From Oligoflexia bacterium (GTDB taxonomy: Bacteria > Bdellovibrionota > UBA1018): a stretch of DNA of 64,000 nt. The stretch lies in the NCBI GenBank assembly GCA_023701205.1, contig JAMPXJ010000007.1:261-64260 (forward strand). Direction: 5' to 3'. Positions 9,799 to 43,580 of the stretch are shown here, in pieces (position 1 is the first letter of the stretch; each line of letters opens with the position of its first letter). Below the pieces are notes generated by a model that saw only the letters and a program-made list of their open reading frames with translations, made no database searches and was not told the DNA's origin. A program made the position numbers and the translations under genes.

Positions 9799-9801
9799 CC
9801 C

Positions 9802-12018: not shown

Positions 12019-12028
12019 GCGCGGGGCT

Positions 12029-13111
12029 TCAGAAATAATAATAGTGGAACAGCACCTCGCGCAGCTCCGCGTACTTCGGGTACTTCAGCAGCGTCCGGCG
12101 CACGTTTTCGAAGGTGTTGCCGATGTACTTGAGGTAGGTCGCGTTGCCGCGGCGATTGAGGAAGGAGGCGAAGCTCCCGATCGCCTTGAAGTTGCGCTGA
12201 ACCGACATCATGTCGAAGGCGTACTGGAAGCGCGCCTGGTCGAGCCGCTCGCCGGTAAGCGCTTCCCACCGCACGACGTAATAGCTCAGCAGGCGCTGGA
12301 TCTGGGATTCCTCGAGCTGGTAGTAGGAGTCCTTGAGCAGCGATACGAGATCATACTGCGCAGGACCCATCCGGGCGTCCTGGAAGTCGATCATCACCAG
12401 GCGATCGCCCTGGCCCGGCTCTTCCGAGGGGGTCACCATGATGTTGCGGCAATGGAAGTCGCGGTGGGTGAGCACCGTCGGCTGCTCCGCCAGGAAGGAA
12501 CAGATCTCGCCGAAGCCCCGCTGCATCAGCTTGAGATCGGAATCTCTGAGCTGGCGCTTGAGATAGAGCTTGTAGAAGTGGTCGATCGTGAAGCCGATCT
12601 CCCACATGAGTTTTTCCTGGTCGAAGCGCAGCTTGAACGCTTCGAGCTGGGGCCGGGTCTTTTTCTTGGGCGAGGCGTTGATCTGAAGATGGATGAGCGA
12701 GTCGATGACCCGCTCGTAGAGATGACGCTCGACGTCGGCGCTCGAGACGTCCTGCAGGTGCCGCAGCAAGGTGACGTCGCCGAGATCCTCAAGCAGCACG
12801 AACCCCTTGGCCGGATCGACGTCCAGGACCTCGGGCACGTCGACACCGGAGGCGGCGAGGTGCTTCTGGACGACGAGGAAGGGGAGATTCTCGCCCTGCT
12901 CGGAGAAAGGCTCCATCCGCATCAGGACATAGGAGCGGCGGCCCGCATCGATCCGGTAATACCGGCGCGTGCTCGCATCCCCGGGAAGCCGGTTTACCGA
13001 TCGGATGGTTTTCGATTTCCTGACCCAGCGGGTGACCTCTTCGTCACCCAGAACGAGTTGATCCGCCATCCGTCTTATCTCCTCTTTGAGAAGCCTGCTG
13101 CTGCTGTCCAT
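12029..13111 (-). CDS. AmgK-like anomeric MurNAc/GlcNAc kinase (aminoglycoside-phosphotransferase fold)
   Basis: APH-fold motifs are present: HRDFHCRNIMV (catalytic loop) and MIDFQDARMG (DFG-like). The arrangement with the murU-like gene is as in the Pseudomonas amgK-murU recycling pathway. Confidence 0.6.
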   Translation of the reverse strand: MDSSSRLLKEEIRRMADQLVLGDEEVTRWVRKSKTIRSVNRLPGDASTRRYYRIDAGRRSYVLMRMEPFSEQGENLPFLVVQKHLAASGVDVPEVLDVDPAKGFVLLEDLGDVTLLRHLQDVSSADVERHLYERVIDSLIHLQINASPKKKTRPQLEAFKLRFDQEKLMWEIGFTIDHFYKLYLKRQLRDSDLKLMQRGFGEICSFLAEQPTVLTHRDFHCRNIMVTPSEEPGQGDRLVMIDFQDARMGPAQYDLVSLLKDSYYQLEESQIQRLLSYYVVRWEALTGERLDQARFQYAFDMMSVQRNFKAIGSFASFLNRRGNATYLKYIGNTFENVRRTLLKYPKYAELREVLFHYYYF

Positions 13112-16626: not shown

Positions 16627-18039
<1,413 letters not shown>

Positions 18040-18086
18040 GGGGAGCGAGCTAGAACTTGGGGGGCAGTTGCGCTACAGTGCCTTCC

Positions 18087-19451
18087 ATGGAAAAAAAGCA
18101 TCGCACGATCATCGAGCCCTTCAAGATCAAGGTCGTTGAGCCTCTTCCCCTGCCTTCGCGCGAGGAGCGCGAGGAGTACCTGCGGAAGGCGGGCTACAAT
18201 CTCTTCCTGGTGCCGTCGCGGGAGGTGACCTTCGACTTCCTGACGGACTCGGGCACGACGGCGATGAGCGCCGAACAGTGGGGCGCGATGATGGTGGGTG
18301 ACGAAAGCTACGCGGGCTCGCGGAGCTTCGAGAAATTCGAGAAGGTCGTGCGCGAGCTGACCGGCTACTCCCACGTGATCCCGACCCATCAGGGGCGCGC
18401 GGCGGAGAAGCTGGTTTTCTCGCTGCTCGCGAAGCCCGGGATGAAGATCCCTTCCAATAACCACTTCGACACGACCCGCGCGAACATCGAGCAGCTCGGA
18501 GCCGAGGCGGTGGATCTGGTGATCGCCGAGGGAAAGGACCCCCAGAGCCGCCATCCCTTCAAAGGAAATATCGATCTCGCGCGCCTCGAGGCCTTTTGCC
18601 AGGAGAACCAAGGCAAGATCCCCTGCGGGATGCTCACGATCACCAACAATACCGGCGGCGGGCAGCCCGTTTCGCTCGAGAACATCCGGGGCGCGGCGGC
18701 GATCTACCGCAAGCATGGAATCCCGTTCATCCTCGATGTCTGTCGGTTCGCCGAGAACAGCTACTTCATCAAGATGCGCGAGCCCGGACAGCAGGAGCGC
18801 CCCGTGCGCGACATCGCGCGCGAGACCTTCGCGCTCGCCGATGGATGCATGATGAGCGCAAAGAAAGACGCGCTCGTGAACATCGGCGGCTTCATCGCGC
18901 TGAAGGATCCGGCCTGGGTGGACCGGCTGCGGAGTCTCCTGATCCTGACCGAGGGCTTCCCGACCTACGGGGGGCTCGCCGCGAGGGATCTCGAAGCCAT
19001 GGCCGTGGGACTGATCGACGTGCTCGAAGAAAGTTACCTGGAATACCGCCTGGCCGTGACCCGATACATGGCCGAGAAGCTCAACCGCCTGGGAATCCCC
19101 ACGGTGCAGCCGCCCGGAGGCCACGCGGTTTACATCGACGCGAAGTCGTTCCTGCCGCATATCCCGCCGGCGCAGTTTCCCGGCCAGGCGCTCGTGGTGG
19201 AGCTTTTCCGTTCCGAGGGCATCCGTTCCTGCGAGATCGGCTCCGTGATGTTCGGAAAAGCGGCGACGATGGAGCTCGTGCGCTGGGCTTTTCCGCGGCG
19301 GGTGTATACGCAGAGCCATTTCGACTATATTTTGGAAGGAATGGAAGACCTGGTCGCGAACAAGGACCGCCTGCGCGGGATGCGCATGACCTATGAGCCG
19401 CCGTTTTTGCGCCATTTCACGGCGCGGTTTGAGCCGCTCTTGGATGGATAG
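18087..19451 (+). CDS. tnaA: tryptophanase-like beta-eliminating lyase (second paralogue)
   Basis: Same fold, but the signature regions are closer to TnaA: RFAENSYFIKMRE, MMSAKKDALVNIGG and EGFPTYGGLAARDLEAMAVGL. The start was moved to MEKKHRTIIEPF. Confidence 0.75.
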   Translation: MEKKHRTIIEPFKIKVVEPLPLPSREEREEYLRKAGYNLFLVPSREVTFDFLTDSGTTAMSAEQWGAMMVGDESYAGSRSFEKFEKVVRELTGYSHVIPTHQGRAAEKLVFSLLAKPGMKIPSNNHFDTTRANIEQLGAEAVDLVIAEGKDPQSRHPFKGNIDLARLEAFCQENQGKIPCGMLTITNNTGGGQPVSLENIRGAAAIYRKHGIPFILDVCRFAENSYFIKMREPGQQERPVRDIARETFALADGCMMSAKKDALVNIGGFIALKDPAWVDRLRSLLILTEGFPTYGGLAARDLEAMAVGLIDVLEESYLEYRLAVTRYMAEKLNRLGIPTVQPPGGHAVYIDAKSFLPHIPPAQFPGQALVVELFRSEGIRSCEIGSVMFGKAATMELVRWAFPRRVYTQSHFDYILEGMEDLVANKDRLRGMRMTYEPPFLRHFTARFEPLLDG

Positions 19452-23422: not shown

Positions 23423-24111
23423 AGGAACCTGCGGGCGGCGCCGGAGCCGGGACGGAGCGAGACGAAGGTGTTGAAAAAGCCGTAAACGATCACCGCCATG
23501 AGGAAGCCGGTCACGACGTCGATGATGTAGTGCTGCTTGGTCGTGAGCGTGGTGAGCGCGATCGAGGTCGCCCAGACGAAGAAGAAGGGGAACTTGCCCC
23601 GCTGCTCGCGCAGGAACATGAACGACGAGAGATAGACGCTGCTCACATGAAGGCTAGGACAGCAGCTCGCCGGGGTGTCGGCGGCGCGGAGCGAGCTGAA
23701 GAGCTTGAAGGTCAGCGCATCGAGATCCGCCGGCAGCGGGAACTGGTCGCGCGGGAAGGTCGTGGGCCAGATCCAGAAAATCAGCACGCTGAGCGACTGC
23801 AGGGTGAGAAAGCTGTAGGCGTAGCGGTTGAGGTTCTCGATGTCCTTGCAGAGCAGGTACACGGTGAGAAAAAGGTAGTATTCGCTCGTGTAGATCCACA
23901 CCGTGCCGGGAACGAAAGGAATCGCCTGGTCCAGCGCCGTCATGGGCAGCAGCTGGGGCGGGAAGAGATGGATGTGGTTGGAAGTCATGTAAAGCACCGT
24001 CGCGACGAACGCGAGGGTGAGACCCATCCAGGTCTTGTTTTCCTGGGTGATCAGCATCGGTACCGACCAGCCGGTAAAGCCGCGGGCGGTCGATGTCGTC
24101 GTGGTGTTCAT
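23398..24111 (-). CDS. PAP2-superfamily integral membrane protein
   Basis: Six TM helices. PAP2-like motifs PSLHVSS and TKQHYIIDV are present. Confidence 0.5.
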   Translation of the reverse strand: MNTTTTSTARGFTGWSVPMLITQENKTWMGLTLAFVATVLYMTSNHIHLFPPQLLPMTALDQAIPFVPGTVWIYTSEYYLFLTVYLLCKDIENLNRYAYSFLTLQSLSVLIFWIWPTTFPRDQFPLPADLDALTFKLFSSLRAADTPASCCPSLHVSSVYLSSFMFLREQRGKFPFFFVWATSIALTTLTTKQHYIIDVVTGFLMAVIVYGFFNTFVSLRPGSGAARRFLQGLQAKR

Positions 24112-24130
24112 AAAACTGACTCCTTACCCC

Positions 24131-24697
24131 TTACCCCGAGATCCAGCGCTCGACCTTCGAGCGGATCTCTTCGCTGTTCCAGTCGCGCTCGCCGTTATGG
24201 ATCAGCAGCACCTTGCGGTTCGCGTCGATCAGGACCGTGAGCGGAATGGCGTGCACGTCGAAGAGCTCGGAAAGCGCGCCATCCTGGTCCACGTAAACCG
24301 GGAAATCGATCCCGAGCTGCTTGGTCATGCGCGGGACCACCGCTTCGGGCTTTTCATCCACATTGATCGCGAGCACCTCGAGGCCGCGGTCCTTGTAGGA
24401 TTTGCGCAGCTCGATGATCGAAGGCATCTCGACGATGCAGGCCTCGCACCACGAGGCCCAGAAGTTCACGAGGACGACTTTCGCCTTCAGCTCCGAAACG
24501 GTCATCTTGCCGCCACCGAAGACCGGGACGGTGAAATCCGGGAGCTGGGCGCCTTCCGAAAGATGAGCCGCCGAGGATTCGGGCGCGCCGCGCTTGAGCT
24601 GGGACTTGACCGCGAAAAGCCCGCCCAAAGCGAGGCTCAGGATGAATGCCACGGGGGCCAGGATCTTGATGAGACGGTTCGTCTGGGGCGTTGTCAT
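24131..24697 (-). CDS. TlpA/ResA-like periplasmic thiol:disulfide oxidoreductase
   Basis: Signal anchor followed by VVLVNFWASWCEACIVEMP, a thioredoxin-fold CxxC motif. Confidence 0.75.
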   Translation of the reverse strand: MTTPQTNRLIKILAPVAFILSLALGGLFAVKSQLKRGAPESSAAHLSEGAQLPDFTVPVFGGGKMTVSELKAKVVLVNFWASWCEACIVEMPSIIELRKSYKDRGLEVLAINVDEKPEAVVPRMTKQLGIDFPVYVDQDGALSELFDVHAIPLTVLIDANRKVLLIHNGERDWNSEEIRSKVERWISG

Positions 24698-24718
24698 GGG
24701 CTGGGATCATACATTAGA

Positions 24719-24940
24719 ATGAGAGGGATGAGAAAGGGCGTTATTACCGGCGCGCGCCGGTCAGAGAGCGGCCAGGCGGTGCTGGAGTACGTCCTGATGA
24801 TCGCGCTCGCCCTCTCCATCGTGGCGATCTTCGGGATCGGGATCCGCCGGAGCGTGATCACCGTCTGGGAGCGGATCGCGAGGGATATCGCGGCTCCGTG
24901 CCCGAGGTGCGAACCTCCGCCCCAGGTGCAGATCCGTTGA
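24719..24940 (+). CDS. Flp/Fap-like (type IVb class III) pilin-like small protein, 70-73 aa
   Basis: This is the C-terminal part of the 307-aa ORF 24017..24940. MR(G)MRKGVITGARRSESG|QAVLEYVLMIALALSIVAIFGI matches the Flp prepilin pattern G-x-x-x-[IL]-E-Y-x-L-[IM], followed by a hydrophobic helix. A GAGAGGG RBS lies upstream. Confidence 0.4.
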   Translation: MRGMRKGVITGARRSESGQAVLEYVLMIALALSIVAIFGIGIRRSVITVWERIARDIAAPCPRCEPPPQVQIR

Positions 24941-24941
24941 C

Positions 24942-25331
24942 ATGGCCGGCAAGACGCGCGCCCGTTTCGAGCGGGTCCTCGAGAGGGTCCTGGACGAGCT
25001 TCCTCCGGAAATCATGGAGCTTCTCGCGGATGTTCCCCTGATCGTCGAGGATGAGCCTTCAAAGGCCGTCCGGCGCGAGATGGGGCTGGAAGACCAGGCG
25101 GGGCCGTCGGATCTTTGCGGGGCTCACTGGGGGGTGCCCCTTTCGGCGCGCAGTGTATCGGAGCCGGTTTTCGAGCCCGAGCGCATCCTGTTATTCCGTG
25201 GCCCGATCCTGCGGCTGGCTGGGGAGAGCGAGGCGGAGCTCGAGGAGCAGATCCGAGTGACGCTGCTTCATGAGATCGGTCACCATTTCGGCCTCACCGA
25301 AGAGGACCTCGAGGACCTGGGCTACGGTTAG
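24942..25331 (+). CDS. small zincin-like metallopeptidase-family protein (HExxH)
   Basis: 129 aa ending VTLLHEIGHHFGLTEEDL. Its ATG begins 2 nt after the stop of the Flp-like ORF. Confidence 0.55.
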   Translation: MAGKTRARFERVLERVLDELPPEIMELLADVPLIVEDEPSKAVRREMGLEDQAGPSDLCGAHWGVPLSARSVSEPVFEPERILLFRGPILRLAGESEAELEEQIRVTLLHEIGHHFGLTEEDLEDLGYG

Positions 25332-25984
25332 CCGCGCTTGGAGGTCTTCGCGTAGACCAGGTAGAGCTCGTCGCCAAGCCTGCGACAGCTCTTGAGCCGC
25401 ACGTTCACCACTTCGGAGGGGCTGAAGCCTTCGCCGTCCACGAGGGTCGGGGCTTCCGTGCCGCCGATCAGGCGGGGAGTGAGGGTCAGGTGGTACTCGT
25501 CGATCAGGTTTTCCTTCACGAAATCCCACATGAGACCGCCGCCGCCTTCGACCAAGAGCCGCTTGATCTTGCGGGTGGCGAGCTCGGCCAGGATCGCCTG
25601 GGCGATCGAGCGCTTTAACGCCGCTCGAGGCAGCACCACGACTTCCGAGCTTCTCTCGAAGCGCCGGGCGCGCTCGGCCGGCAGCTTCCCGGTCACGAGT
25701 AGGATCCGGGGCGCGGCGGGATCCTTGAAGAATTCCCACTCCGGCGAGATGCCTGAAAGATCCCGGCTCAGGATCACGTTGGCCGGCTGAAGCTTCCTGC
25801 CCCGCGTGTAGCAGAATTTGCGATGGGCTCGAAGCGTCGAAGCTCCCATGAGGATCGCATCCGAGCGGCGGCGGAGCACCTGCATCTGCTGCCGGTCGGC
25901 GGGCGTTCCGAGATGAAAAACCGAGCGGTCGCTCGTGGCGATCTTTCCGTCAAGACTCGTGGCGAGGTTGGAAAAGACGAACAT
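25328..25984 (-). CDS. RibD C-terminal-domain (dihydrofolate-reductase-like) reductase family protein
   Basis: MFVFSNLATSLDGKIATSD...GGGGLMWDF...ELYLVY matches the RibD_C/DHFR-like fold. Confidence 0.65.
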   Translation of the reverse strand: MFVFSNLATSLDGKIATSDRSVFHLGTPADRQQMQVLRRRSDAILMGASTLRAHRKFCYTRGRKLQPANVILSRDLSGISPEWEFFKDPAAPRILLVTGKLPAERARRFERSSEVVVLPRAALKRSIAQAILAELATRKIKRLLVEGGGGLMWDFVKENLIDEYHLTLTPRLIGGTEAPTLVDGEGFSPSEVVNVRLKSCRRLGDELYLVYAKTSKRG

Positions 25985-26038
25985 TCCCGATGGATATCAC
26001 GGCTTCTGGCTTCCGCGCCCGAAATTCGATATGACGGG

Positions 26039-26893
26039 CCTGTGTCGGAAGTCCTGGATGTCCTCAAGCATGATCGGGCCAATGCCGGGCTGAAATACGT
26101 CTATCCCGTCGTCTCGCGCCGGGCGGGCGGCGTTTCGGTCGGCATCAACCTGAACACCAATGACGCTTGCAACTGGCGCTGCATCTACTGCCAGGTGCCG
26201 GAGCTGCAGCGCGGGTCCGCGCCGCCCGTGGACCTCGCGCTGCTGGAGAGCGAACTGCGGGGCTTTCTTCGGGAGGAATCGCTGCGGGCTTTTCTGCAGG
26301 CGCGCGTGCCGGAGCCTTTGCGCCGCCTCAATGACATCGCCTTTTCCGGTAACGGGGAAGCCACGACTTCGCCCGAGTTTCCCGAGGCGGTGGAGATCGT
26401 GATTCGCGTCCTGCGCGAGCTCGGCGTGGATCCGGCGGTGAAGCTCGTGCTAATTACGAACGGCAGCCTGGCTCGCCGTCCGTGGGCCCAGCGGGGTTTC
26501 GAGCTGATGGGACGGGCGAACGGGGAGATCTGGTTCAAGGTCGACAGCGCGCGCGCCCAGGGAATGCGCGAGCGCAACGGGACCTCGATGACGGCGGACG
26601 AGCTGCGCGAGAACCTGCGCTCGACCGCCACGCGCTGCCCGACCTGGCTGCAGACCTGCGTTTTCGCGCTCGACGGCGCGCCTCCTTCGGACGAGGAGCG
26701 CCGCGCGTACCTCGAGCTCCTGGACTGGGCCAAGCGCGAGGCGATCCCGCTGCGCGGGGTTTTCCTGTACGGGCCCGTGCGGCCGTCGCTGCGCGAAGAG
26801 GCGTCGCGGATCTCGCTGCTTCCGCGCGAGTGGGTGGAGGGCTTCGCAGCGGAGATGCGCGCGCGGGGGCTCGAGGTCAGGGTCACGGAGTAG
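26039..26893 (+). CDS. radical SAM domain protein
   Basis: GINLNTNDACNWRCIYCQ carries the CxxxCxxC radical-SAM cluster motif. The ORF track starts at 25823 and overlaps the divergent RibD_C gene by 160 nt, so GTG at 26039 is proposed as the start. This start is uncertain. Confidence 0.65.
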   Translation, partial: PVSEVLDVLKHDRANAGLKYVYPVVSRRAGGVSVGINLNTNDACNWRCIYCQVPELQRGSAPPVDLALLESELRGFLREESLRAFLQARVPEPLRRLNDIAFSGNGEATTSPEFPEAVEIVIRVLRELGVDPAVKLVLITNGSLARRPWAQRGFELMGRANGEIWFKVDSARAQGMRERNGTSMTADELRENLRSTATRCPTWLQTCVFALDGAPPSDEERRAYLELLDWAKREAIPLRGVFLYGPVRPSLREEASRISLLPREWVEGFAAEMRARGLEVRVTE

Positions 26894-26997
26894 GGGAGCA
26901 CTTGGAAAACTCAAAACGCCTTGCGGTCCGTCTCGAGAGCGGGGAATCCGTCCTGCCCGGAGAGCTTTGGCTGCGGGAATGGACGCGGCGCGAGCGG

Positions 26998-27276
26998 ATG
27001 CTGCGCGCCCTGAAGTTCGGTGGCGGCTCCTGGGGTCTCGCGCTCGTTTCGGTCTTTCTGCCGCTTCTGCATTTCGTTCTGGTGCCTGCATTTCTGATCG
27101 CCGGACCGCTCGTGGCGTTCTTCGTATTCAACCAGGAGTCGCTGGTTCTCGGAGGGAAGGGAAAGTGCCCGCATTGCGGCGGGGATTTTTCCATCCGCAG
27201 GGGCGCGCCGCGATTTCCGATCAGCGATCTTTGCACCCGATGTCAGCGGACGGTGCTGGTGAGGGCGGGCGATTAA
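26998..27276 (+). CDS. small membrane protein with a C-terminal zinc ribbon
   Basis: 92 aa (or 124 aa from TTG at 26904). Two TM helices, then CPHCGG...CTRCQ. Confidence 0.35.
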   Translation: MLRALKFGGGSWGLALVSVFLPLLHFVLVPAFLIAGPLVAFFVFNQESLVLGGKGKCPHCGGDFSIRRGAPRFPISDLCTRCQRTVLVRAGD

Positions 27277-28985
27277 CGCTGTTGCGCGCCCAAATCCTCG
27301 GAGCCGACTTCGGCTTCTTCCGCCGGACCTCCGAACTGATTGCGTCGCATCGCCTCCTCGTAAACAGAGCGCGGGCTTCGCTCCGCGAGCCAACGGGTCA
27401 TGCCGAGGACCGCCTGAACCAGGTCGGGGTCACGAAAAACGAGAATCTGCTCGTTGTTCGTCTGCGCCGCCTGACTGAAGTTGAATGATGTACCTAAGAT
27501 CACGTAGGGTCCGGTCGCCAGCACCTTGTGGTGAATTTTGGCCGTGATGGCGTGGCTGGTGCCGTCGATCTTCACGTGATGGTTATTGTATTCCGGCGGG
27601 GCGATCCGGATCTGCGGCCGGAGCGCATCGAGCTGGGCGGGGGAGAGCTCCTGATGCCAGGCGTTCTGGGCATCTTCCTCGTACGTCTTCTTCTTCTTTG
27701 AAAGTTTCACCTGCTTCATCCCGGACATGAGGAGGAACTGGCTCCACGGCTGCATGGCGAAGGGCGTGTCGCCCACCGAGAGGAAGTCGAAGCTCTTCTG
27801 GCGCGAATGTTCCCGCAGGGCGCGCTCGCGCAGAGCGGTGGCCACCTCTTCCGAGGAGTAGGCGAATTGCAGCAGCCGGACGGGTCCTTGCGAGCTCTTG
27901 ATGAAGTGCGCGATGAGGTTCTGGTTGATGTTGCGGTAACCACCTCCGGGCGCGAAGGTGATGATGAGCGAGTGCTCGGGATAGGCTTCGAGCGTCTCGG
28001 GTGGAACGCCAGGCCCCGTCACCTGGAAGGACCCGGTCGTCGGATAGCTCGCGCCGCGGAACAGGAAGGCGGGATCCAGGGTCTTCGTCAGCTCATGCTG
28101 GACGAGATTGGCCAGGAGCCAGGAGCGCATTGTCAGGACGTGGTTGGCGTTCGGGACGGATTCGGGGGGCCGCTTTTGCGGCGGCAGCGCCTTGAGATCC
28201 CCTTCGGGGCCGAGGCAGGATTGGGTGAGGTTTCCGGAGGAAAACAGCACGCGGGCCTTCTCGGGGTCTTCCCAGTCGATCGCGGCGAGCTTCTGATGGT
28301 TGAGGCTCACGCTGTTGACCGGAGTCACCGCCACCCCGCCGGACACCAGGCGGTCTCGCACGCGCGCGACCTCGGGACGCAGCGCGACCACGTTCTTGTC
28401 GATGCCGACGCGCACCGAGACGCCGGCGGCCGCTTTCCTGACGAGATCTTCAGCGACCTCTTCAAGATCGAAGTCGAAGACGTTGAGGATGATCTGGCGC
28501 TCGGCCTGCTCGAGGAAATCGCGCCAGACCTGCACGAGATCGGACTCACGGACCAGGGATTTACCGAGGTAATAAGGGTGCGAAGCGTGGAATTTGAGCT
28601 CCGAGTACCCCGGCTGGCCCCGGGGCGGAATGAGCCGAAGGTGCTTGGTCGGATCCGGGTTTTGCGCGGATTCGGCCGCCACGGCCTTGAGGAGTTCTTC
28701 GCGGGGGGAGTCGATTCGCGCGGGTTCGTTTTGCAGAAGCTCGATAAGTCGGGACTCGACATTGGCCTTGCTGAGACGCTTCTGCACCTTCGGATCGTCC
28801 GAGCGCAGCACCTCGCGGCTTCTCCTGAAGATTCTCGGATAGTCGGGTCCCTGGAGCTCGGCGGAGCGGTCCAGCGAACCGGGTTGCCGTTGCGCCCCCT
28901 TGTGCGAAGGGCTGGAGCAGCCCGCCGTCGCGAGCGCCAGGTTCAGAAACGCGATCAAGATCCAGCGCGGAGTGCTTGAGCTCAT
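27273..28985 (-). CDS. phospholipase D-superfamily lipoprotein (two HKD-type motifs)
   Basis: Lipobox LATAGC|SS. Motif 1 is NHQKLAAID...SSGN (HxKxxxxD...GSxN). Motif 2 is IHHKVLATG...GTSFNFS. Confidence 0.7.
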   Translation of the reverse strand: MSSSTPRWILIAFLNLALATAGCSSPSHKGAQRQPGSLDRSAELQGPDYPRIFRRSREVLRSDDPKVQKRLSKANVESRLIELLQNEPARIDSPREELLKAVAAESAQNPDPTKHLRLIPPRGQPGYSELKFHASHPYYLGKSLVRESDLVQVWRDFLEQAERQIILNVFDFDLEEVAEDLVRKAAAGVSVRVGIDKNVVALRPEVARVRDRLVSGGVAVTPVNSVSLNHQKLAAIDWEDPEKARVLFSSGNLTQSCLGPEGDLKALPPQKRPPESVPNANHVLTMRSWLLANLVQHELTKTLDPAFLFRGASYPTTGSFQVTGPGVPPETLEAYPEHSLIITFAPGGGYRNINQNLIAHFIKSSQGPVRLLQFAYSSEEVATALRERALREHSRQKSFDFLSVGDTPFAMQPWSQFLLMSGMKQVKLSKKKKTYEEDAQNAWHQELSPAQLDALRPQIRIAPPEYNNHHVKIDGTSHAITAKIHHKVLATGPYVILGTSFNFSQAAQTNNEQILVFRDPDLVQAVLGMTRWLAERSPRSVYEEAMRRNQFGGPAEEAEVGSEDLGAQQR

Positions 28986-29038
28986 GGAGGTCCCCCGGGC
29001 TCTTTTCGGAATTCCGGCGGGAAACTGGAATTTGTCTA

Positions 29039-31570
29039 ATGGTTTTGGCGGGTTTTCCCGAAACGAGAACAGTGAGAGGCCTGATTCCCGAGTTCAGGAT
29101 ATTTTCCGGCTTGGTTCCGATTCTCTTTTCGCTGCCGGCACACGCCTGGCCGCCGACTTTCGGGCCGGAGTTCACGTTCACGAATCCCGAGATCCTCGAG
29201 GTCGGTAACCGCAATCCCACGAACGCGAAATCGGAGATCAACTCCGCGAAGCTCGAGCAGTGGCGCGGGGTCCTGGTCGAGCGCTGCAAGCAGCTCGGCT
29301 GCGAGGTTCGAAGGACGAGTGACAAGCACGGCGCAGCGCACCGAGTTTCATTTCCGGATGGCTGGTATTTCAACATCTCCCTCGACGCCGCCGTGCTCGA
29401 GGTTCAGACGAAGCCCGGAACGCTCGAGGATTTCCGCGCGCGGAAGGAACTCATTCAGAAGGAGATCTTCGAGACAGCGCGCTCCATCGGCATCGAGCCG
29501 CACAAGCGCGCCGGCCAAGGTCATATCCACATCGATGTGGATGAGGCTTTCGGCCAGGACAGCCGGCTGCTGCGCAATTTCTTCGTCGACTACTCGAACC
29601 ATCCGGAGCTGGCCTGGGGCGCGCTCGGCAACCATCTCGGCAACAGCCCGCCCGTCGCCGCGCTCAAGCCGGAGCAGCGCAAAGCGCTGATCCATGCGCT
29701 TCAGGAGTTTGACGCCCACCCGGGCACGCATCGGGAGTTCGGCGATCTGATCGACCGAAACGTCTATACGCACGGAACGGTCGCGGAATGGGGCTTCCCG
29801 CGGCATTATCAGGCCCTGCGCTTCGCCTGGAATCTCAACACGATCGAGATGCGCGGGTTCCGTCCCCAGCGTTCCGCGGATGAGTTCGTGAAGGAGCTCG
29901 AGCTGATCCAGGGTCGGATCGAGCATCTCAAGAAGGTTGAAGGAGCGATTCCGTTCGTCAATCCTCCCACGCACGAGCTTCCGCTCAAGGAAGTCGTCAC
30001 GCGCTTCTACGGCTATGTGACCGAGTCGGGGCTCGACTGGGAGACGTATAAGACCCTGCTGCCGCCGGAACTCGTCGGGATCCAGCCGGACACGAAGCGG
30101 TTTCCGAAACCCAAGCTGCGCAACGAGGCTTTTGACGAGGTTCGCGATGCGAGCGGGGGCCTTCGCGAACGCTATCGCGGCGTCCATGAGGTTTACGCCG
30201 GAATGTCTGTGATAGAGCGGCGGGCCTTCGAGGCGGCCACGTTCAAGGAGTCCGCCGGGAACCGGAGCCTCCTTCCCTTGCCACGCCTCCTGAGCGTGGA
30301 GGAGCGCGACGAGATCAAGAAGGGCGTGCAGCAGCGCGCTCGGGCGCTTCAGCTTCTCGCCGAGGATGTCGCGAAGGGGAATTACGAACGCATTGAGGCA
30401 TTCGGGCTTCCGCGGTCCATCGTGAAGGCAGCGCTGGCGCGGAGCGGGGAGACCGAAGCGGTGAAGGCGCTCATGCCCGAAGCGATCGCATTTCCTTACG
30501 GGCCGGACCTGATCCGTGGCCCGGACGGAAGATACCTCGTGATCGAGGACAATACGGGCTTCGTCGGTGGCATCGGCGACTCGTCCTACTCGCGGGAGCA
30601 GCTCCTGCGTCATCAGCCGGCGTACCGGCAGTTTCTCGAGCAGGATCGCGGCAAATCGGCGGTCGAGATCCTTGTGGAACATCTCCGGAAGCTGGCCGTG
30701 CCGCCGGACGGAGAGCTGGTCATGGCAGTGCACCCCGATATGAAGGTGAACAATGCGACCCTGTCTTCACAGCTGGAGAAGCTGGGTGTCCGGGTGATCT
30801 ATGGTGCCAAGAGTGAGCTGAAAGTCGATGCCGGGGGCGTGTTCCTGAACATTGATGGTGTTAAGCGCCGCGTGGGCCTGGTTCTCCCGAAAAACTATGC
30901 CATCGGTGGTTTTGCAACCCAAACCGTTCCCGGTCTGGAAGAAGCTGCAAGAGCGGGCAAAGTGGCGCTCGGATATCAGGCGGGCCTGGAGTTCCTCGGA
31001 GACAAGGAGATCTCTCCTTATGTGGAGAAGCTGATCCGCGGCTATCTTGGGGAAGCGCCGATCCTGGGCACTCCCGAAACCCATTCGCTCAAGCTGGGGC
31101 AGGGAGCCGATCCGGCGCTCGTCGAGGCGCTCACCGAGAATCGCGAGGCATACGTGCTCAAGCAAGCCGATGGAAGGGGCGGGAGCGAAGTCTGGATCGG
31201 CAAAAAAACCTCCAGCTCCGAGTGGCGCTCGTTGCTCAAGAAGGCGGTGAAGGAGCCGGACAGCTTCATCGTCCAGAAGTTCACGCCCCTCTCGGAACTC
31301 GAGGGGCATATCGTGGACATGCGGCCGGTGACCTACGTGAGCCGGTTCGGCGCCGACGTCGCGGATCATTTCTGGGCGCGCGCGCTCCCGGTGGATGGCA
31401 ACGGCAAGGTGAACGTCTCCATCGATGGCAAGGTCACGGCGGTCTTCGTGACGGACCCGAAGAAATACCCGGCGCAGCCGGAGCTGGACGTGCCTGCGGC
31501 CGCGCGCCCGGGAGGGTTCCCGGGCTCCTCTTTTTGCGCGCGGCTTTTTGAAAAGCTGTTCCGTCGTTGA
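29039..31570 (+). CDS. two-domain ligase: N-terminal glutamine-synthetase/GCS2-like amidoligase domain fused to a C-terminal circularly permuted ATP-grasp domain
   Basis: The N-terminal half contains WYFNISLDAAVLEVQTKP, AGQGHIHIDV and NTIEMRGFRP. These parallel the GS/GCS2 motifs of YbdK (LGIELEMQ, GQHVHVG, TVEVRVMD). The C-terminal half contains LVIEDNTGFVGGIGDSSYS and YVLKQADGRGGSEVWIG...IVQKF, an ATP-grasp nucleotide-binding segment placed C-terminally as in CP-ATP-grasp proteins. The ORF track starts at 28976 and would overlap the PLD gene start, so M22 (29039) is more plausible. Confidence 0.55.
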   Translation: MVLAGFPETRTVRGLIPEFRIFSGLVPILFSLPAHAWPPTFGPEFTFTNPEILEVGNRNPTNAKSEINSAKLEQWRGVLVERCKQLGCEVRRTSDKHGAAHRVSFPDGWYFNISLDAAVLEVQTKPGTLEDFRARKELIQKEIFETARSIGIEPHKRAGQGHIHIDVDEAFGQDSRLLRNFFVDYSNHPELAWGALGNHLGNSPPVAALKPEQRKALIHALQEFDAHPGTHREFGDLIDRNVYTHGTVAEWGFPRHYQALRFAWNLNTIEMRGFRPQRSADEFVKELELIQGRIEHLKKVEGAIPFVNPPTHELPLKEVVTRFYGYVTESGLDWETYKTLLPPELVGIQPDTKRFPKPKLRNEAFDEVRDASGGLRERYRGVHEVYAGMSVIERRAFEAATFKESAGNRSLLPLPRLLSVEERDEIKKGVQQRARALQLLAEDVAKGNYERIEAFGLPRSIVKAALARSGETEAVKALMPEAIAFPYGPDLIRGPDGRYLVIEDNTGFVGGIGDSSYSREQLLRHQPAYRQFLEQDRGKSAVEILVEHLRKLAVPPDGELVMAVHPDMKVNNATLSSQLEKLGVRVIYGAKSELKVDAGGVFLNIDGVKRRVGLVLPKNYAIGGFATQTVPGLEEAARAGKVALGYQAGLEFLGDKEISPYVEKLIRGYLGEAPILGTPETHSLKLGQGADPALVEALTENREAYVLKQADGRGGSEVWIGKKTSSSEWRSLLKKAVKEPDSFIVQKFTPLSELEGHIVDMRPVTYVSRFGADVADHFWARALPVDGNGKVNVSIDGKVTAVFVTDPKKYPAQPELDVPAAARPGGFPGSSFCARLFEKLFRR

Positions 31571-31840
31571 CGGTTACGCCGCCGCGAAGAGCCCTCCCTC
31601 AGCGCTTCGAATATACGCTCGAGCTCGCCTGGAAAGTCGCGAAAAGGCGATCTCGACCTGCTCATCGAAGGCACTCCGCCACTTCCCGGCGCCCGGATCG
31701 AGGCCCTGAGGGATGCGCTCGAGGAAAGCGACTTTCCGTTCAAAGTCGATCTGGTGAGGATGGAAGAGCTGGTCCCGTCCTACCGTGACCAGATTCTTTC
31801 GGAACGAAAGCTTTTTTGGGAGAGCCAGTCCGGCGGCTGA
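31571..31840 (+). pseudogene. MNT/MntA-type minimal nucleotidyltransferase (HepT-MntA antitoxin family) remnant, no start codon
   Basis: The open frame begins immediately after the TGA of the ligase gene, in the same frame: RLRRREELSPSASNIRSSSPGKSRKGDLDLLIEG...FKVDLV...LSERKLFWE. It has the GS...D[LI]DLL[IV]E and KVDLV signatures but no Met or plausible start. No HEPN partner follows. Confidence 0.45.
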
Positions 31841-31862
31841 GGGCCAAGCCCACCGGCACGGA

Positions 31863-33056
31863 TTAATGCTTATTCCAATCGTTTTCGGGCATGACCCGTT
31901 TCATGAATTCATCGAAGAGGGGCACGGTGAAGGCCGTATCGCCATGATTCGGGCTCCAAATCATCCCCTTACCGATCAGGCTGCTCCGAGTCGGACCTAA
32001 TGAGCTGACGATCCGGTTAAGCTTCTCCGCAATATCTCCCGAACGGTGAGGTCCCGCCCCGAGTGCGGCCATCGCGCGGAGGTATTTCTTCTCTGAAGGG
32101 GTAAGTCGGTCAAAACGAACGCGAAAAAAGCTCTCGTCAAGAGCTGCGACAGCCTGGGTGGAAGCCGCGTGGACGTCAGCAACGGTGATCGGGCTTCTGG
32201 TCGCAACACTCCAGGAATGCTTTCCCCACTCCTGCAAGAAATAAGGATAGCCGCGAGTCTGCTCTACGATGGCCGCCACTGCTGCAGGCTCAAATTCCAC
32301 ACCTAGGTCAGACGCCGGCTTTTCAAGCGCCAGACGCGCGGCGGCGATGGGGAGAGGGCCTATTTCCGGATAGTCAAAGAGTCGTTCGGCATAGGACTTA
32401 GCATTACCAGCGCGGCCGCGAAGTTGTGGCAGCCCGGCTCCGACAATGCAAACCGGTAGTTTTTGCTGAGCACATCGATGAAGTGCAGTAATGAGAGCAG
32501 CAAGCTCCGGCTCCGCTACATACTGAAGTTCATCGATGAATATCACGAGAGCTGTCCCGGCCGCTTTCGCGGCGCGACCGACCTCCTCAAGGAGCATAGC
32601 TAGATCGAGTTCAAGGTCGCCGTTATCGGCAAATCCTGGTTCAGGATCGTAGTCGAGTCCAACTTCGATATCTTGGAATTTTACCTTGAGAGCCCTGACA
32701 AAACCGGCGAGACCGCGAAGCGCTCTTACCGCGACATCCTTGGCCTTATCGATCCTGCTAAGCCGCAAGAGCGCCAACCGCAACTGCGGCGCCAATATAG
32801 CGGGAAGCGAGCGACCCTCGGGAGCCTCAATTCGAACCGTATGTATTCCCGCGGCCTCTGCATCATTCCGCATCTGATCGAGTAAAACCGTCTTACCTAC
32901 ACCTCGTAGTCCAACCATGACGACGCTTTTCGCCGGATTGCCCAAGCGAATACGTTCGAGCGCGATCCGAACCGAACCGCGCAGCTGATCGCGACCAGCC
33001 AGTTCAGGAGGAGGGGTGCCCGCGCCAGGTGAATAGGGGTTTTGTATTGGATCCAT
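31863..33056 (-). CDS. archaeal-type AAA ATPase (Arch_ATPase/DUF234-like P-loop NTPase)
   Basis: Walker A GLRGVGKTVLLDQ and Walker B ALVIFIDELQYV, with a C-terminal winged-helix-like tail. The gene sits in a lower-G+C stretch. Confidence 0.6.
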   Translation of the reverse strand: MDPIQNPYSPGAGTPPPELAGRDQLRGSVRIALERIRLGNPAKSVVMVGLRGVGKTVLLDQMRNDAEAAGIHTVRIEAPEGRSLPAILAPQLRLALLRLSRIDKAKDVAVRALRGLAGFVRALKVKFQDIEVGLDYDPEPGFADNGDLELDLAMLLEEVGRAAKAAGTALVIFIDELQYVAEPELAALITALHRCAQQKLPVCIVGAGLPQLRGRAGNAKSYAERLFDYPEIGPLPIAAARLALEKPASDLGVEFEPAAVAAIVEQTRGYPYFLQEWGKHSWSVATRSPITVADVHAASTQAVAALDESFFRVRFDRLTPSEKKYLRAMAALGAGPHRSGDIAEKLNRIVSSLGPTRSSLIGKGMIWSPNHGDTAFTVPLFDEFMKRVMPENDWNKH

Positions 33057-33253
33057 TTGATGAACTATATAGCGATATTAGGCAGATTACAACATATAGA
33101 TAAGTTTTGTAATTTAACTATAAATGAACATTTAAATAGGCAAGACATGGAAACTACTAAAGTAAATCAACAGCAGCACTTTGAGTGCTCGCAGTGTGAG
33201 CCACAGTAGCGGGCGGCCTTACTCTCTCCTGGAAAAAGCCCGATAAGCAATCG
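33057..33253. promoter_or_regulatory. AT-rich divergent intergenic region (probable promoters for the AAA ATPase and the secreted 792-aa protein)
   Basis: About 200 nt of strikingly AT-rich sequence, ttgtaatttaactataaatgaacatttaaatagg, between two divergent starts. Confidence 0.35.
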
Positions 33254-35632
33254 ATGAGATCAAGCATGCGGGCCCTCCTACTCGCAGGGATGTTGACGTT
33301 TCCCGGCGTGCACCGCGCGCAAGCCGGGCTGCCGGTCCCTCCAGCCCCGGGCATTCCCGTCCTCAACCGGTGCAAAACAAGCTTCGAGGAGCTTCTCAAG
33401 GCGCCCGTATTTCAAAGATTCGGCCTGGGAGAGAATTTTTCCGCTGCTCAGGACAAAATCCTGATCGCCCGGGGAGAGGTACTTGCGCTCACGGAGAGAA
33501 GACTGGAACGCAATCCTACGCATTCCAGGCTCCAAATCCATGAGCATCGCGTGAGTCCATTGGTCCTGCTGGATGCCAAAACAGAGGCGCGGATCTCTGA
33601 CTGGCATTCGATCCTGGAAAAGGTGGACCAAAAGCTGGGCGAGCTCGGCGACAGCCTCGTGGATAAGAAGGCGAACTTTCCTAACTTCGGGCTCTCATCG
33701 GACTCGAAAACAGTCGCTCTGCAGGTCCTCACCGGGTCGGGCCCTCGCGTGGTCCTTTTTGATTATGGAAAAGGCGAAGTCCGACAGGTCTTCAGGCCGC
33801 TTCTGAATCGGCAGACGCCCGCAGTCCGCTTACAGCATGATCGTTATATCCTGCTGACTGACCGAGCCGAAGGTGGAAGCGTCAATCTGATCCTGGATAC
33901 CCAGACCGGAAGCCAAAAAATCCTGGAGGGCTCGCGATACGCGGACATTTCAGTTTCACCCGATGGAGAAAGACTCCTCGCGCTGATTGGAGATACGCTC
34001 TGGTATGGCAGATTGGACCAGCTCGGAAGCAGGGAAGTCATCGAAGATGCCGCTTCGCTTAAGTCCCTGAAAGGGAAGCTCGTCTCTCAATCGCCTGACC
34101 TGAGCCAACTCGTGGTGAATCATGGAGAGCAGACCTGGGACCCGGCAACCCAGACCTCGTTCCACCTGCCTGTCCTGAAGGTGGCCACTTGGAAGGGGAA
34201 CTCCTATCGGGAACAATTCCTTCCCGGTCTCGAAAATTTGTCCCTGAAATTCAAGGAGGCCAAAAACGCGGGCATGGAGCTCCTGCGGGCGGACGTTCAG
34301 GGAAAGCAGACACCGGATGGCCATTACCTGGCGGTGCGCTTCCCGATGCGAGCCAAAACAGAAACCCTCCCTAAGAGGGGTTTTCGCCAAGAGGTCGTGG
34401 CAGAGTATGACATTGTGGGCCTTTGGGACCTCCGAAAGCCGGGAAGCCCACCTGCTTTCACGGCCTCCCGGGATCTCAACTCACCAGGAAACTACGAGCC
34501 CACTCTGGACTCCGCCATTGCCTCGGCTCAGGCGGGCGAGACAGTGCTGCGAAAGGTCGCTTTTGAGCTTTCAGACGATGGCAAGCTCACTCTGGTTCGC
34601 GTCACTTCTGCTGATTCAAATCCAGCGTCCCCGCAGCGAGCTTTTCCGAAGCTGGATTTTGCGGTCTCAGAAATTCGCCTCGTCGGTAACGGGCAGGTCG
34701 AGCGGTCGCTCGATGCGCAAAGCTTTCCGCTCAAAACACTCGGTGAGGGGGATAATCCGGGAGCGCCTCTGCTTTGGGGATCTATCGACGTCAGTGCCGA
34801 CGGCAAGCGTGTGGTTGCTCATACTCGCAACGAAGGGATTCTTTACTTCGAGCGGGAGCGAGGCGGCCTTTCCACGGCGGGCCCTGATCCGATCCATCCG
34901 GCTTCCGGTGTAACAGAAAAAACCGGGAAAGGTCAGTTCGCGGAGATCCTGAAGAAGGTTCCCGCCTCTTTCAAGCAAACACACCTGACTCATGAGGATC
35001 GCGAAAAGATCCAGGCGATATTTTCGATGGGTAATCTCTCTCGCAGCGATCAGCTTCGCAATGCGTTCGAAGCCTACCGTGAGGCGAGATTGCGGGGCCT
35101 TGGGCGCAAGGAACGGGAGCAGGTGCTCAAGATGCTCAAGGAGCTCCGGGTCAAGAAAAGTCCCTCTGGCTCGGGCTACATGAGGGCCAATGCTTCGGGA
35201 ATCGTCATGCCCGAGGAGCTTCATGGCACCGCCGCGCACTACGGTGTGCTGTCCCATGAGCTGGAGCACCTGATTCAGATCGTGGAAGCAACCCCTTCGG
35301 CCAGTCCGGCTGAATTACGGCGGCTCTACGGGCACCTCACGCAGGAGCACGCGCAGGTCAATCTCTGGGAGATCGGCGCCTCGAAAGGCGAATGGGAGTT
35401 CCTGAGCGTGGTCCCCGCGTCGATCAGGAGCGAGGCGGAACAGTCCGCGCAGCAAAACCTCGGTGATCATGGGCTTCGCCTGGCCGTCACCGAGATTCTC
35501 CAGTCAGCGGGTGGCTCCCTGCAGGATCATATCGCCCGGAAGATCAATCTCGGGATCCTGCGGATGCCCTTGGACCGGGATCTTACTTCTTTAGAGTCGA
35601 GTGTTCCGTCGGGGCGGGTGATTTCGCAATAA
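33254..35632 (+). CDS. large secreted protein with PD40/TolB-like beta-propeller repeats and a C-terminal HExxH motif
   Basis: Signal peptide MRSSMRALLLAGMLTFPGVHRAQA. PD40-like repeats: ISVSPDGERLLAL and DVSADGKRVVAHT. The C-terminal segment YGVLSHELEHLIQIVE follows. Confidence 0.5.
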   Translation: MRSSMRALLLAGMLTFPGVHRAQAGLPVPPAPGIPVLNRCKTSFEELLKAPVFQRFGLGENFSAAQDKILIARGEVLALTERRLERNPTHSRLQIHEHRVSPLVLLDAKTEARISDWHSILEKVDQKLGELGDSLVDKKANFPNFGLSSDSKTVALQVLTGSGPRVVLFDYGKGEVRQVFRPLLNRQTPAVRLQHDRYILLTDRAEGGSVNLILDTQTGSQKILEGSRYADISVSPDGERLLALIGDTLWYGRLDQLGSREVIEDAASLKSLKGKLVSQSPDLSQLVVNHGEQTWDPATQTSFHLPVLKVATWKGNSYREQFLPGLENLSLKFKEAKNAGMELLRADVQGKQTPDGHYLAVRFPMRAKTETLPKRGFRQEVVAEYDIVGLWDLRKPGSPPAFTASRDLNSPGNYEPTLDSAIASAQAGETVLRKVAFELSDDGKLTLVRVTSADSNPASPQRAFPKLDFAVSEIRLVGNGQVERSLDAQSFPLKTLGEGDNPGAPLLWGSIDVSADGKRVVAHTRNEGILYFERERGGLSTAGPDPIHPASGVTEKTGKGQFAEILKKVPASFKQTHLTHEDREKIQAIFSMGNLSRSDQLRNAFEAYREARLRGLGRKEREQVLKMLKELRVKKSPSGSGYMRANASGIVMPEELHGTAAHYGVLSHELEHLIQIVEATPSASPAELRRLYGHLTQEHAQVNLWEIGASKGEWEFLSVVPASIRSEAEQSAQQNLGDHGLRLAVTEILQSAGGSLQDHIARKINLGILRMPLDRDLTSLESSVPSGRVISQ

Positions 35633-35658
35633 CCCGCAAGCTCAACGTCGGTCTGCCG

Positions 35659-36651
35659 CTACGGCGCCCACCCATGCAGGATCTTCATGTAGTTCCCGCG
35701 CGTGAACGCATCCGGATCCGGGCAGCGCCGCAGGCTCATGCTCCCGCGCAGCTGCTCGAGCGACTCGTACTCATGGCTGGTAAGCCACTGCGCGATCTCG
35801 GCAGCGAGCTTGGTGAAGACCGAAGGCCCCTGCTGCAGGAGCGCCGAGACGACCTGCACGCCCGTCGCGCCGGTCATGAGCGCCTTGATCGCGTCCTGCG
35901 AGGTGTGCACGCCGCCTGAGACGGCGAGCGAACCACGGAAGTGCGGCTCCAGGATCGCCAGGCAGCGCAGGCGCAGCGGCAGCTCCGAGGAATCCGAGAG
36001 CTTGAGCGTCGGCGCGGCCTGCAGCGCCTCGGTGTCGATGTCCGGCTGGTAGAGCCGGTTGAAGAGCACGAGCCCGTCGGCGCCCGCGGCGGCGAGCTGC
36101 TGGGCGAAATTCGGGAGAGACGAGAAGAACGGCGAGAGCTTCACGGCGATCGGGATCCTCACCATCGCGCGGATCGCCTTGAGGATCTCGAGGTAGCGCC
36201 CCTCGACCTGCGCGGCGGTTTCGTTCGGATGGGTGGGGAGCTCGTAGAAGTTGAGCTCGAGCGCATCCGCGCCGGCTTCCTCGATGAGCTTCGAGTAGCG
36301 TTCCCAGCCGCCGTGGGTGATGCCGTTGAGCGAGCCGATGACGGGAATGCCCGTGGCCTTTTTCGCCTGGCGCAGGTGCTCGAGATAGCGTTCCGTATCG
36401 AAAGCGAAATCCTGGAACGGGAAGAGCCCTTCGGACGCTTCGGCATACGCACCCGCGTGCGCCGTCGCGTGACGGAAGTAGGCATTTTCCTCCATCGCGA
36501 TCTGCTCTTCGAAAAGCGAGCGCAGCACGATCGCGGAGGCGCCGGCGTCCTCGAGTCGGCGGATGCCATCGATCCGGTCCGTGAAGGGCGAGGCGCCGGA
36601 GAGGAGCGGGTTTTTCAGTTCCAGGCCGAGATAGCGCGTGGTGAGCTTCAC
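35659..36651 (-). CDS. dihydroorotate-dehydrogenase-like (class 1 TIM-barrel flavoprotein) protein
   Basis: PyrD-like segments GIPVIGSLNGITHGGWERY, GADALELNF and GADGLVLFNR. It overlaps the PFOR stop by 4 nt. Confidence 0.65.
   Translation of the reverse strand: MKLTTRYLGLELKNPLLSGASPFTDRIDGIRRLEDAGASAIVLRSLFEEQIAMEENAYFRHATAHAGAYAEASEGLFPFQDFAFDTERYLEHLRQAKKATGIPVIGSLNGITHGGWERYSKLIEEAGADALELNFYELPTHPNETAAQVEGRYLEILKAIRAMVRIPIAVKLSPFFSSLPNFAQQLAAAGADGLVLFNRLYQPDIDTEALQAAPTLKLSDSSELPLRLRCLAILEPHFRGSLAVSGGVHTSQDAIKALMTGATGVQVVSALLQQGPSVFTKLAAEIAQWLTSHEYESLEQLRGSMSLRRCPDPDAFTRGNYMKILHGWAP

Positions 36652-41812: not shown

Positions 41813-43580
<1,768 letters not shown>

Follow-up and report, generated by a model that had tools for sequence, protein, structure and literature searches.

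A small gene at positions 24728-24940 of a 64,000-nucleotide stretch of DNA from an Oligoflexia bacterium (contig JAMPXJ010000007.1; the whole stretch is called the window) probably, though with considerable room for doubt, encodes an orphan prepilin of the Flp/Tad (type IVc) class. The protein belongs to a family that is, as judged from the sequences retrieved, unnamed, restricted to Bdellovibrionota and characterized by two conserved cysteines at its end (the CPxC family). A first-pass annotation of this DNA had left open whether the protein is an orphan Flp pilin that depends on a tad locus at another site or a different kind of small membrane peptide. The former fits best, because of the cleavage motif, the 55-residue mature size, the predicted helix, the profile links to Flp1 and to Flp4-like proteins, and the prepilins of a Tad locus in a related genome. 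Flp/Tad pilins themselves are known, and what appears to be previously undescribed is an unnamed orphan Flp-type subfamily with a CPxC tail. With it, a second orphan Flp-type family that spans the phylum is recognised, one that no model of Pfam or NCBIfam captures, and the small protein offers experimenters a specific candidate for a specialised subunit of a pilus.

The window has a G+C content of 63% and therefore contains many long spurious open reading frames (ORFs), among them that at 24017..24940. This long ORF is an artefact, mostly antisense to a redoxin gene on the reverse strand, and only its last 70 codons are a gene. The G+C content at third codon positions (GC3) of the small gene is 0.86, like that of the real genes of the window. 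Compared with the ortholog in a second Oligoflexia metagenome-assembled genome (MAG; locus L001), there are 17 synonymous and 13 non-synonymous codon differences, with most of the replacements concentrated in the last ten residues. The codon bias, the synonymous excess and the 194 homolog clusters described below rule out a chance ORF; the small gene is real and under purifying selection. In GenBank it is annotated as NDJ89_06030, a hypothetical protein of 70 residues from an Oligoflexia MAG. The first-pass annotation had correctly read the in-frame tail of the long ORF as encoding MRKGVITGARRSESG followed by QAVLEYVLMIALALSIVAIFGI, but had placed the start at the ATG at 24719. That ATG lies inside a promoter -10 box and is missing from the ortholog, and the actual start is the ATG at 24728.

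The N-terminal region of the small protein has the arrangement expected for the Flp motif, with a leader ending in Gly, four residues before a Glu-Tyr pair, and a hydrophobic stretch. It reads ESG↓QAVLEYVLMIALALSIVAIFG, where the arrow marks the predicted cleavage site after Gly15, as inferred from the motif. The class III signal-peptide pattern of Flp pilins, which had been noted earlier for this protein, is present, with Gln following the Gly, Glu5-Tyr6 in the mature protein, and conservation throughout the family.

The extent of the family was established by an exhaustive HMMER search over 1.84 billion cluster representatives (clusters at 50% identity). Relatives were found in 194 representatives at E ≤ 1e-3 and in 48 at E ≤ 1e-10; among the 150 matches listed, lengths range from 46 to 127 residues, and most are aligned over nearly the full length of the query. 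Word-indexed protein searches gave 2 and 19 matches, mostly named 'hypothetical protein', with two JGI entries called 'Flp pilus assembly pilin Flp'. One genome per GTDB species was also scanned with a 19-sequence alignment, and the 32 loci found are all in Bdellovibrionota MAGs except for one weak match in Elusimicrobia.

Members of the family share a common layout. A variable, mostly basic leader is followed by G↓Q-A-(I/V/L)-V-E-Y-(I/V)-L-M-L, about 20 hydrophobic residues and G-F-R-(R/K), then by an amphipathic stretch with a conserved Trp, the sequence (E/D)-I-A-A-(P/A)-C-P-x-C, and a short Pro-rich tail. In the alignment of 143 sequences used to compute conservation, Gln16 is invariant, and Gly15, Glu20, Trp47, Cys58, Pro59 and Cys61 are each at least 90% conserved. 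Length and residue statistics were computed on 159 members. The leader has a median length of 15 residues (range 3-70) and the mature part one of 55 residues (range 48-78). Mature position 5 is Glu in 157 of the 159; at position 6, 142 members have Tyr and the other 17 have Phe. For annotators, the hallmarks of the family are the invariant G↓Q cleavage site, the conserved Trp...CPxC tail and a signature of leaderless mRNA (see below).

The predicted mature protein has the dimensions of a Tad pilin. Tad pilins studied by cryo-EM have 40-60 residues and form continuous helices, with a conserved Tyr6 and neither a C-terminal domain nor Pro22 (PMC10710030). In the AlphaFold2 model, calculated with the family alignment, a single continuous helix runs from Gln16 to residue 55 (mean pLDDT, the predicted local distance difference test score, of 84.7; core above 95), and no structure is predicted for the CPxC tail. 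Mature residue 22 is Ile, and 154 of the 159 family members have no Pro within mature residues 1-40, the remaining 5 having one. As modeled, therefore, the 55-residue protein is a continuous helix within the published size range, with no Pro22 and no globular domain.

The small protein may be compared with the canonical Flp/Fap pilins (PF04964), for example PilA of Caulobacter crescentus (PDB 8U1K). Both have a short basic leader ending in Gly, Glu5-Tyr6 and a hydrophobic stretch, and the size and helical character just described are also shared (PMC10710030). The small protein differs, however, in having Gln rather than Ala or Val at +1, a conserved Trp and a C-terminal CPxC motif, in giving no match to PF04964, in an apparently leaderless mRNA, and in the location of its gene, which is never in a tad locus among about 36 family loci. 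Gln at +1 and Glu at +5 after a cleaved Gly are also found in archaeal class III signal peptides and EppA-dependent pilins (PF04021, QxSxExxxL). In Methanococcus pilins, Gln1 cyclises to pyroglutamate. The similarity to the archaeal proteins is limited, as the PF04021 score is below its cut-off and the host is bacterial. Tad pili are thought to be derived from archaeal pili (PMC10710030).

A closer counterpart is Flp1 (Bd0119) of B. bacteriovorus, which is encoded in the TAD operon and has been detected by mass spectrometry (sequence in Table S3 of Avidan et al., PMC5430801). Alignment of the CPxC family with Flp1 by hhalign gives a probability of 96% and an E value of 3.4e-9 over 36 columns. 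Flp1 begins ...NESG↓QGATEYILLL..., with the same G↓Q, Glu5 and Tyr6, and the two proteins have the pattern '...ESG↓Q..EY(I/V)L(L/M)L' in common. In contrast, the C-terminal half of Flp1 is unrelated and lacks Trp...CPxC, and its gene is inside the TAD operon.

The strongest link between the small protein and Tad prepilins is provided by a Tad locus in a Bdellovibrionales MAG (L031). Five consecutive prepilin-like ORFs, with the codons of their Gly residues at 9061, 9329, 10016, 10312 and 10853, lie directly upstream of genes for RcpC/CpaB (PF16976), a secretin with a pilus N-terminal domain, and a TadZ-TadA fusion (CbiA plus T2SSE). Two of the five ORFs are Flp-sized, one encodes 92 residues, and two are TadE-like, with E-F in place of E-Y. 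Each of the five has G↓Q and a Glu at +5, and one starts with GQAVLEYVLML, which is 78% identical to the small protein over residues 10-27. Since every prepilin-like ORF of this Tad locus carries G↓Q...E-Y/F, this appears to be the prepilin signal of the Tad substrates of the phylum, and the small protein carries it as well. The FHA-domain proteins encoded in the same locus are reminiscent of the Kil system of Myxococcus.

The N-terminal module is also found apart from the rest of the family sequence. In L029 (722-1099, about 100 residues) and L033 (466-1329, about 288 residues), a ...GQAVVEY(I/V)LM... module is fused to unrelated C-terminal regions, and it therefore acts as a prepilin-type signal that is portable between proteins.

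Orphan flp genes have been described before. In every genome of a Bdellovibrio-like predator that was examined, flp genes are present away from the tad locus (Avidan et al. 2017, PMC5430801), and such predators have unusually many Flp pilin genes (PMC5430801). One of these genes, flp4 ('bd4000') of B. bacteriovorus HD100, is expressed in the attack phase independently of FliA and is required for predation and prey invasion (PMC5430801); it adjoins an RHS gene (PMC3818213). The primers used for deletion and reverse-transcription PCR of flp4 encode the fragments MNKRGQIVVE..., RKWQNI and ...KK-stop. An earlier degenerate DNA scan for flp4 gave no matches, and a degenerate scan with RGQIVVEY plus hydrophobic codons found 11 metagenome ORFs (L037-L047). 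They form a tight, cysteine-free family (alignment A4; RGQIVVEY-LLL...SRD..PG..KW..IL..IG.D) that fits all three fragments and is probably the flp4 family, a placement made from the primer-encoded fragments alone. Several of these loci have a similar, less canonical -10-like box just before the ATG.

By hhalign, the CPxC and A4 families are related with a probability of 97.4% and an E value of 1.3e-11 over 51 columns, including the Trp helix and with a 7-residue gap. Both consist of orphan Flp-type genes outside a tad locus. The Flp4-like proteins have no cysteines, however, and carry a 7-residue insertion and an acidic tail, and flp4 is next to an RHS gene rather than a redoxin gene. The small protein lacks this insertion and has the CPxC tail, so it is not a Flp4-like protein; the families are homologous but distinct. 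Conversely, flp4 was considered as a member of the CPxC family. A chimeric query found only P0145, which is in the redoxin context and not beside an RHS gene, and flp4 probably represents a sister family, to judge from these comparisons. The product of flp3 was rejected as well, as its C-terminus (...NSNQTAN) does not fit.

Several observations weigh against the assignment as an orphan Flp/Tad prepilin. The small protein has no match to PF04964 (Flp_Fap, cut-off 32.2 bits) at E ≤ 1 and none above cut-off to the NCBIfam models. Its scores with PF16982 (Flp1_like; 17.1 bits, E 0.0038) and PF04021 (Class_IIIsignal; 15.8 bits, E 0.013) are below the cut-offs of 33.5 and 23.7 bits, respectively, although the Q+1/E+5 pattern is present and conserved. 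Foldseek finds no matches to the predicted structure in the PDB, a lone helix being too uninformative for this comparison. No Tad ATPase or other tad gene is located within 10 kb at any of the approximately 36 family loci, and no Flp pilin with a CPxC tail was found described in the literature. TadV has been reported missing from all Bdellovibrio genomes examined (PMC5430801), which makes the processing enzyme uncertain. It is also conceivable that the shared N-terminal module does no more than anchor the protein in the membrane.

Some of these results can be put into perspective. A search with PF04964 had been proposed in the first-pass annotation as a check on the pilin reading, with the lack of a match counting against it. 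However, Flp1, a pilin from a Tad locus, also fails this model (15.1 bits) while scoring 39.5 bits with PF16982. PF04964 is therefore non-discriminating in this phylum, where it is unfit to rule Flp pilins in or out, and the failed match of the small protein is uninformative. Across the 143 aligned family members, matches to pilin-type models are weak but recurrent: 25 match PF16982 at E ≤ 0.01 (best E 1.3e-6), 17 match PF04021, two each match TadE and DUF4244, and one matches PF04964 (2e-5). A search of PDB sequences with the family profile gave nothing significant, only CPxC zinc-knuckle look-alikes at E > 0.3. As for the genes nearby, the lack of tad neighbours makes this family always orphan. 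With the PilT protein of the window as the tblastn query, no secretion-type ATPase was found within 10 kb of any family member, except for a PilT-like gene in L010. The earlier statement that the window has no tad/cpa assembly genes holds for the approximately 57 ORFs of the window scanned with Pfam, among which the only pilus-related genes are those for a PilT/PilU ATPase and a PilZ-domain protein.

A pathway for the small protein as an orphan Flp/Tad prepilin can be proposed. Its gene would have a sigma-70-type promoter of its own and be transcribed into a leaderless mRNA, as the conserved -10 box suggests, and the 70-residue product would be inserted into the inner membrane through its hydrophobic helix. 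A prepilin peptidase would then cut after Gly15, leaving an all-helical subunit of 55 residues with Gln1, Glu5 and Tyr6. A Tad machine encoded elsewhere might polymerise this subunit or incorporate it in a minor role or at the tip. In the filament, the hydrophobic N-terminal half would be located in the core and the polar C-terminal tail on the surface, with the CPxC pair most likely present as a disulfide.

The pattern of cysteines in the family gives some indication of their role. Their number is almost always even: 116 members have two, 36 have four and 2 have none, and a single member has three. The four-Cys members have a fixed C-x5-C-P-x-C...C arrangement, with the final Cys one or two residues before the end. 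In L012 (9923-10183; ...VGGSPLQP...) and L014 (9962-10204; ...VGASPNGP...), both cysteines of CPxC are replaced together. This pairing fits disulfides or a shared metal site, and the CPRC motif on the exposed tail of the small protein is a probable site of either kind. A more speculative idea, which we consider rather improbable, is that the tail makes a redox-active pilin, with inter-subunit disulfides or with a reversible thiol/disulfide or metal site that is set in the periplasm, before assembly, by the TlpA-like reductase encoded divergently. In a Tad-type filament with a subunit rise of about 5 Å and C-termini on the surface, inter-subunit disulfides could lock the fibre covalently. If this were true, pilus assembly or adhesion in predatory bacteria would be redox-gated.

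The promoters called for the small gene and for the redoxin gene, which is divergent from it, are interleaved. Both sites were called in the promoter scan, with 0.0 expected in shuffled sequence. The -10 box of the small gene ends 7 nt before the ATG at 24728, and its -35 box overlaps the start codon of the redoxin gene (CAT, 24695-24697). The -10 box of the redoxin gene is 8 nt before its own ATG. The window, L001 and L035 share the conserved block ATCATACATTAGAAT, and a TAnnnT box (TAGAAT, TAAAAT, TATAAT or TACAAT) is found 4-7 nt, mostly 6-7 nt, before an in-frame ATG or GTG in 26 of 28 family loci. A -10 box so close to the start codon suggests that the mRNA of the small gene, and probably that of the redoxin gene too, is leaderless or nearly so; we infer leaderless translation of the small gene from the conservation of this box. 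The first-pass annotation had assigned a ribosome-binding site to the small gene. The sequence in question, GAGAGGG (24721-24727), abuts the ATG and is not such a site, the conserved element being the -10 box.

The redoxin gene encodes a membrane-anchored protein of the thioredoxin fold that scores 80.9 bits with Redoxin and 80.5 bits with AhpC-TSA. With the NCBIfam ResA subfamily model it reaches 108.6 bits, under the cut-off of 170, and it is thus a generic TlpA-like protein rather than the named equivalog. WCxxC is present in all 19 orthologous redoxin matches. Two gene contexts are found for the family. In context A, the order is hutI (+), a PAP2 gene (-), the TlpA-like redoxin gene (-) and the divergent small gene (+). 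This order is seen in the window, in 18 fetched loci (17 distinct contigs, as L001 and L002 are the same contig), in L036 and in one 385-kb JGI contig, with redoxin identities of 33-62%. The gene downstream varies, being zincin in the window and L001/L002, RibD_C in L003, L012, L013 and L014, and RlmE in L035 and the 385-kb JGI contig. In context B (12 loci), the small gene (+) is preceded by genes for a heptosyltransferase (-) and an Rce1-like CPBP protease (+) and followed by S41 peptidase or VWA genes, and no redoxin gene is nearby.

These arrangements bear on the proposal, unlikely in our view, that the small protein is an uncleaved, single-pass inner-membrane partner of the redoxin in thiol-redox or metal chemistry, with the pilin-like N-terminus acting as an anchor only. 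The back-to-back genes with interleaved promoters and a 30-nt gap, the retention of this adjacency throughout context A, the high conservation of CPxC and the weak PDB similarities to CPxC zinc knuckles are all consistent with it. However, the 12 loci of context B have no nearby redoxin, L012 and L014 have lost both cysteines while the WCxxC of the redoxin is kept, and hutI and the PAP2 gene are conserved alongside as well, so the adjacency may reflect inherited gene order. An anchor role would also leave unexplained the invariant G↓Q with E+5/Y+6, which matches the prepilins of a Tad locus. Context B and the loss of both cysteines in L012 and L014 also weaken the idea of a redoxin dedicated to the cysteines of a pilin; it is a conserved neighbour that may influence these cysteines but is not dedicated to them. 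The small protein might also be a minor subunit or pseudopilin of a type IVa pilus, processed by PilD and handled by PilB/PilT, which we rate as equally improbable. The PilT/PilU ATPase (TIGR01420) and PilZ-domain protein of the window point in this direction, as does the PilT-like gene in L010, 4 kb from a family member, and given the reported absence of TadV in Bdellovibrio, PilD may process Flp-type proteins there (PMC5430801). On the other hand, the PilT gene of the window is 18 kb away among unrelated genes, and the N-terminus is of the Flp type (G↓QAxVEY, Tyr6) rather than G↓F/M-T-L-I-E, the same module being found in the Tad locus of L031. A mature protein of 55 residues with no globular domain is, moreover, a Tad trait (PMC10710030).

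The combination of a leader and a cysteine-containing core could instead suggest the precursor of a secreted or modified peptide, similar to a bacteriocin or a ribosomally synthesized and post-translationally modified peptide (RiPP), that is processed by neighbouring proteases and perhaps a radical-SAM protein. Protease genes are beside the small gene in two contexts (zincin in one, CPBP/Rce1-like protease and S41 peptidase in the other), and a weak radical-SAM gene is present at 25823-26893 and also in L001. We regard this explanation as very unlikely, as none of the neighbours is conserved throughout the family, the zincin lacks both a signal peptide and a membrane segment, the radical-SAM match is below cut-off (27.1 versus 29.5 bits), and the small gene has its own promoter in every context. 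In addition, the conserved part is a 40-residue hydrophobic and amphipathic helix with a pilin motif, which does not resemble a RiPP core.

The gene downstream of the small gene had been described as a zincin with the motif HEIGHH, and this is borne out by a full-length match to PF06262 (91 bits, cut-off 22.4; E 4.9e-26). Among solved structures, PDB 3E11 ('predicted zincin-like metalloprotease') is the nearest (E 3.2e-16). The gap between the two genes is 1 nt (stop at 24940, start at 24942) rather than the 2 nt reported, and because of it the zincin gene is probably co-transcribed with the small gene in the window; in L001, there is instead a 4-nt overlap. Among the approximately 36 loci, the zincin adjoins the small gene only in the window and in L001/L002. 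Prepilin peptidases are membrane aspartyl proteases of family A24. The zincin protein has no match to Peptidase_A24, only Zincin_1 and weak metzincin motifs being found. It was considered and rejected as a processing peptidase or functional partner, as the adjacency is confined to these loci and the protein is soluble and resembles 3E11. The pairing of prepilin and zincin that the first-pass annotation had drawn attention to thus has no evident functional meaning, other genomes having RibD_C, RlmE, S41 peptidase or VWA genes at this position. The zincin is a lineage-specific, recent chance neighbour, and this removes a false lead, that of the zincin as an alternative prepilin peptidase.

Table 1. 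Positions of the small gene, its putative functional elements and the associated genes and loci. Positions are those of the window unless a locus is named.
Feature	Position	Strand	Remarks
Membrane-anchored TlpA/ResA-like thiol:disulfide oxidoreductase (redoxin), WCEAC	24131..24697	-	divergent from small gene, 30-nt gap
Predicted sigma-70-type promoter of small gene, TTGTCA (24691-24696), 18-nt spacer, TAGAAT (24715-24720)	24691..24720	+	promoter scan 10/12
Promoter-like site of redoxin gene, TTCTCA-17-TATGAT	24706..24734	-	promoter scan 9/12
Small gene, 70 residues, Flp/Tad-type prepilin-like, CPxC family	24728..24940	+	stop codon 24938-24940
Predicted class III (prepilin) leader, MRKGVITGARRSESG	24728..24772	+	ends at Gly15 (24770-24772)
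Predicted mature pilin, 55 residues	24773..24937	+	Gln1, Glu5 (24785-24787), Tyr6, hydrophobic helix, Trp32 (24866-24868), C-terminal tail
CPRC motif, Cys58-Pro-Arg-Cys61	24899..24910	+	C-terminal family signature; C58, P59, C61 at least 90% conserved
Zincin_1 (PF06262), small cytoplasmic metallopeptidase-like protein	24942..25331	+	HEIGHH at 25269-25286 (residues 110-115)
Tad locus, Bdellovibrionales MAG	L031 3299-16010		three FHA-domain proteins and PP2C phosphatase upstream, then prepilin ORFs
Context B loci	about 9200-12100 in 20-kb loci L011, L015, L016, L018-L024, L026, L028		own -10 box kept

Compared with L035, and in part with the 385-kb JGI contig, the window has about 15 kb (24942-40235) between the small gene and RlmE (40279-40884). 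This block contains genes for the zincin, RibD_C, weak radical-SAM, PLD-like, circularly permuted ATP-grasp, AAA_16 ATPase, DHODH-like and PFOR proteins and a 792-residue ORF, and it looks like a lineage-specific insertion or rearrangement in this comparison. Within it, the G+C content dips to 0.535-0.576 at 32000-35000, against about 0.63 elsewhere. The dip spans the AAA_16 ATPase gene (31863-33056, -) and the 792-residue ORF (33254-35632, +), which has no Pfam match and a GC3 of 0.66, and the DNA here may have been acquired.

The PilT/PilU-family type IVa pilus ATPase is encoded at 5970-7184 (-) and scores 447 bits with TIGR01420 (cut-off 319). In this region (5970-7852, -), its gene is preceded by that for a GAF-domain protein (7181-7852) and followed by that for a 268-residue protein with a weak HtpX-like match; further pilus genes are absent from its surroundings. 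The PilZ-domain protein is encoded at 41813-42550. Elsewhere in the window, two adjacent paralogous genes at 16651-19451 (+) encode beta-eliminating lyases of the tryptophanase/tyrosine phenol-lyase type (PF01212), with 462 and 464 residues.

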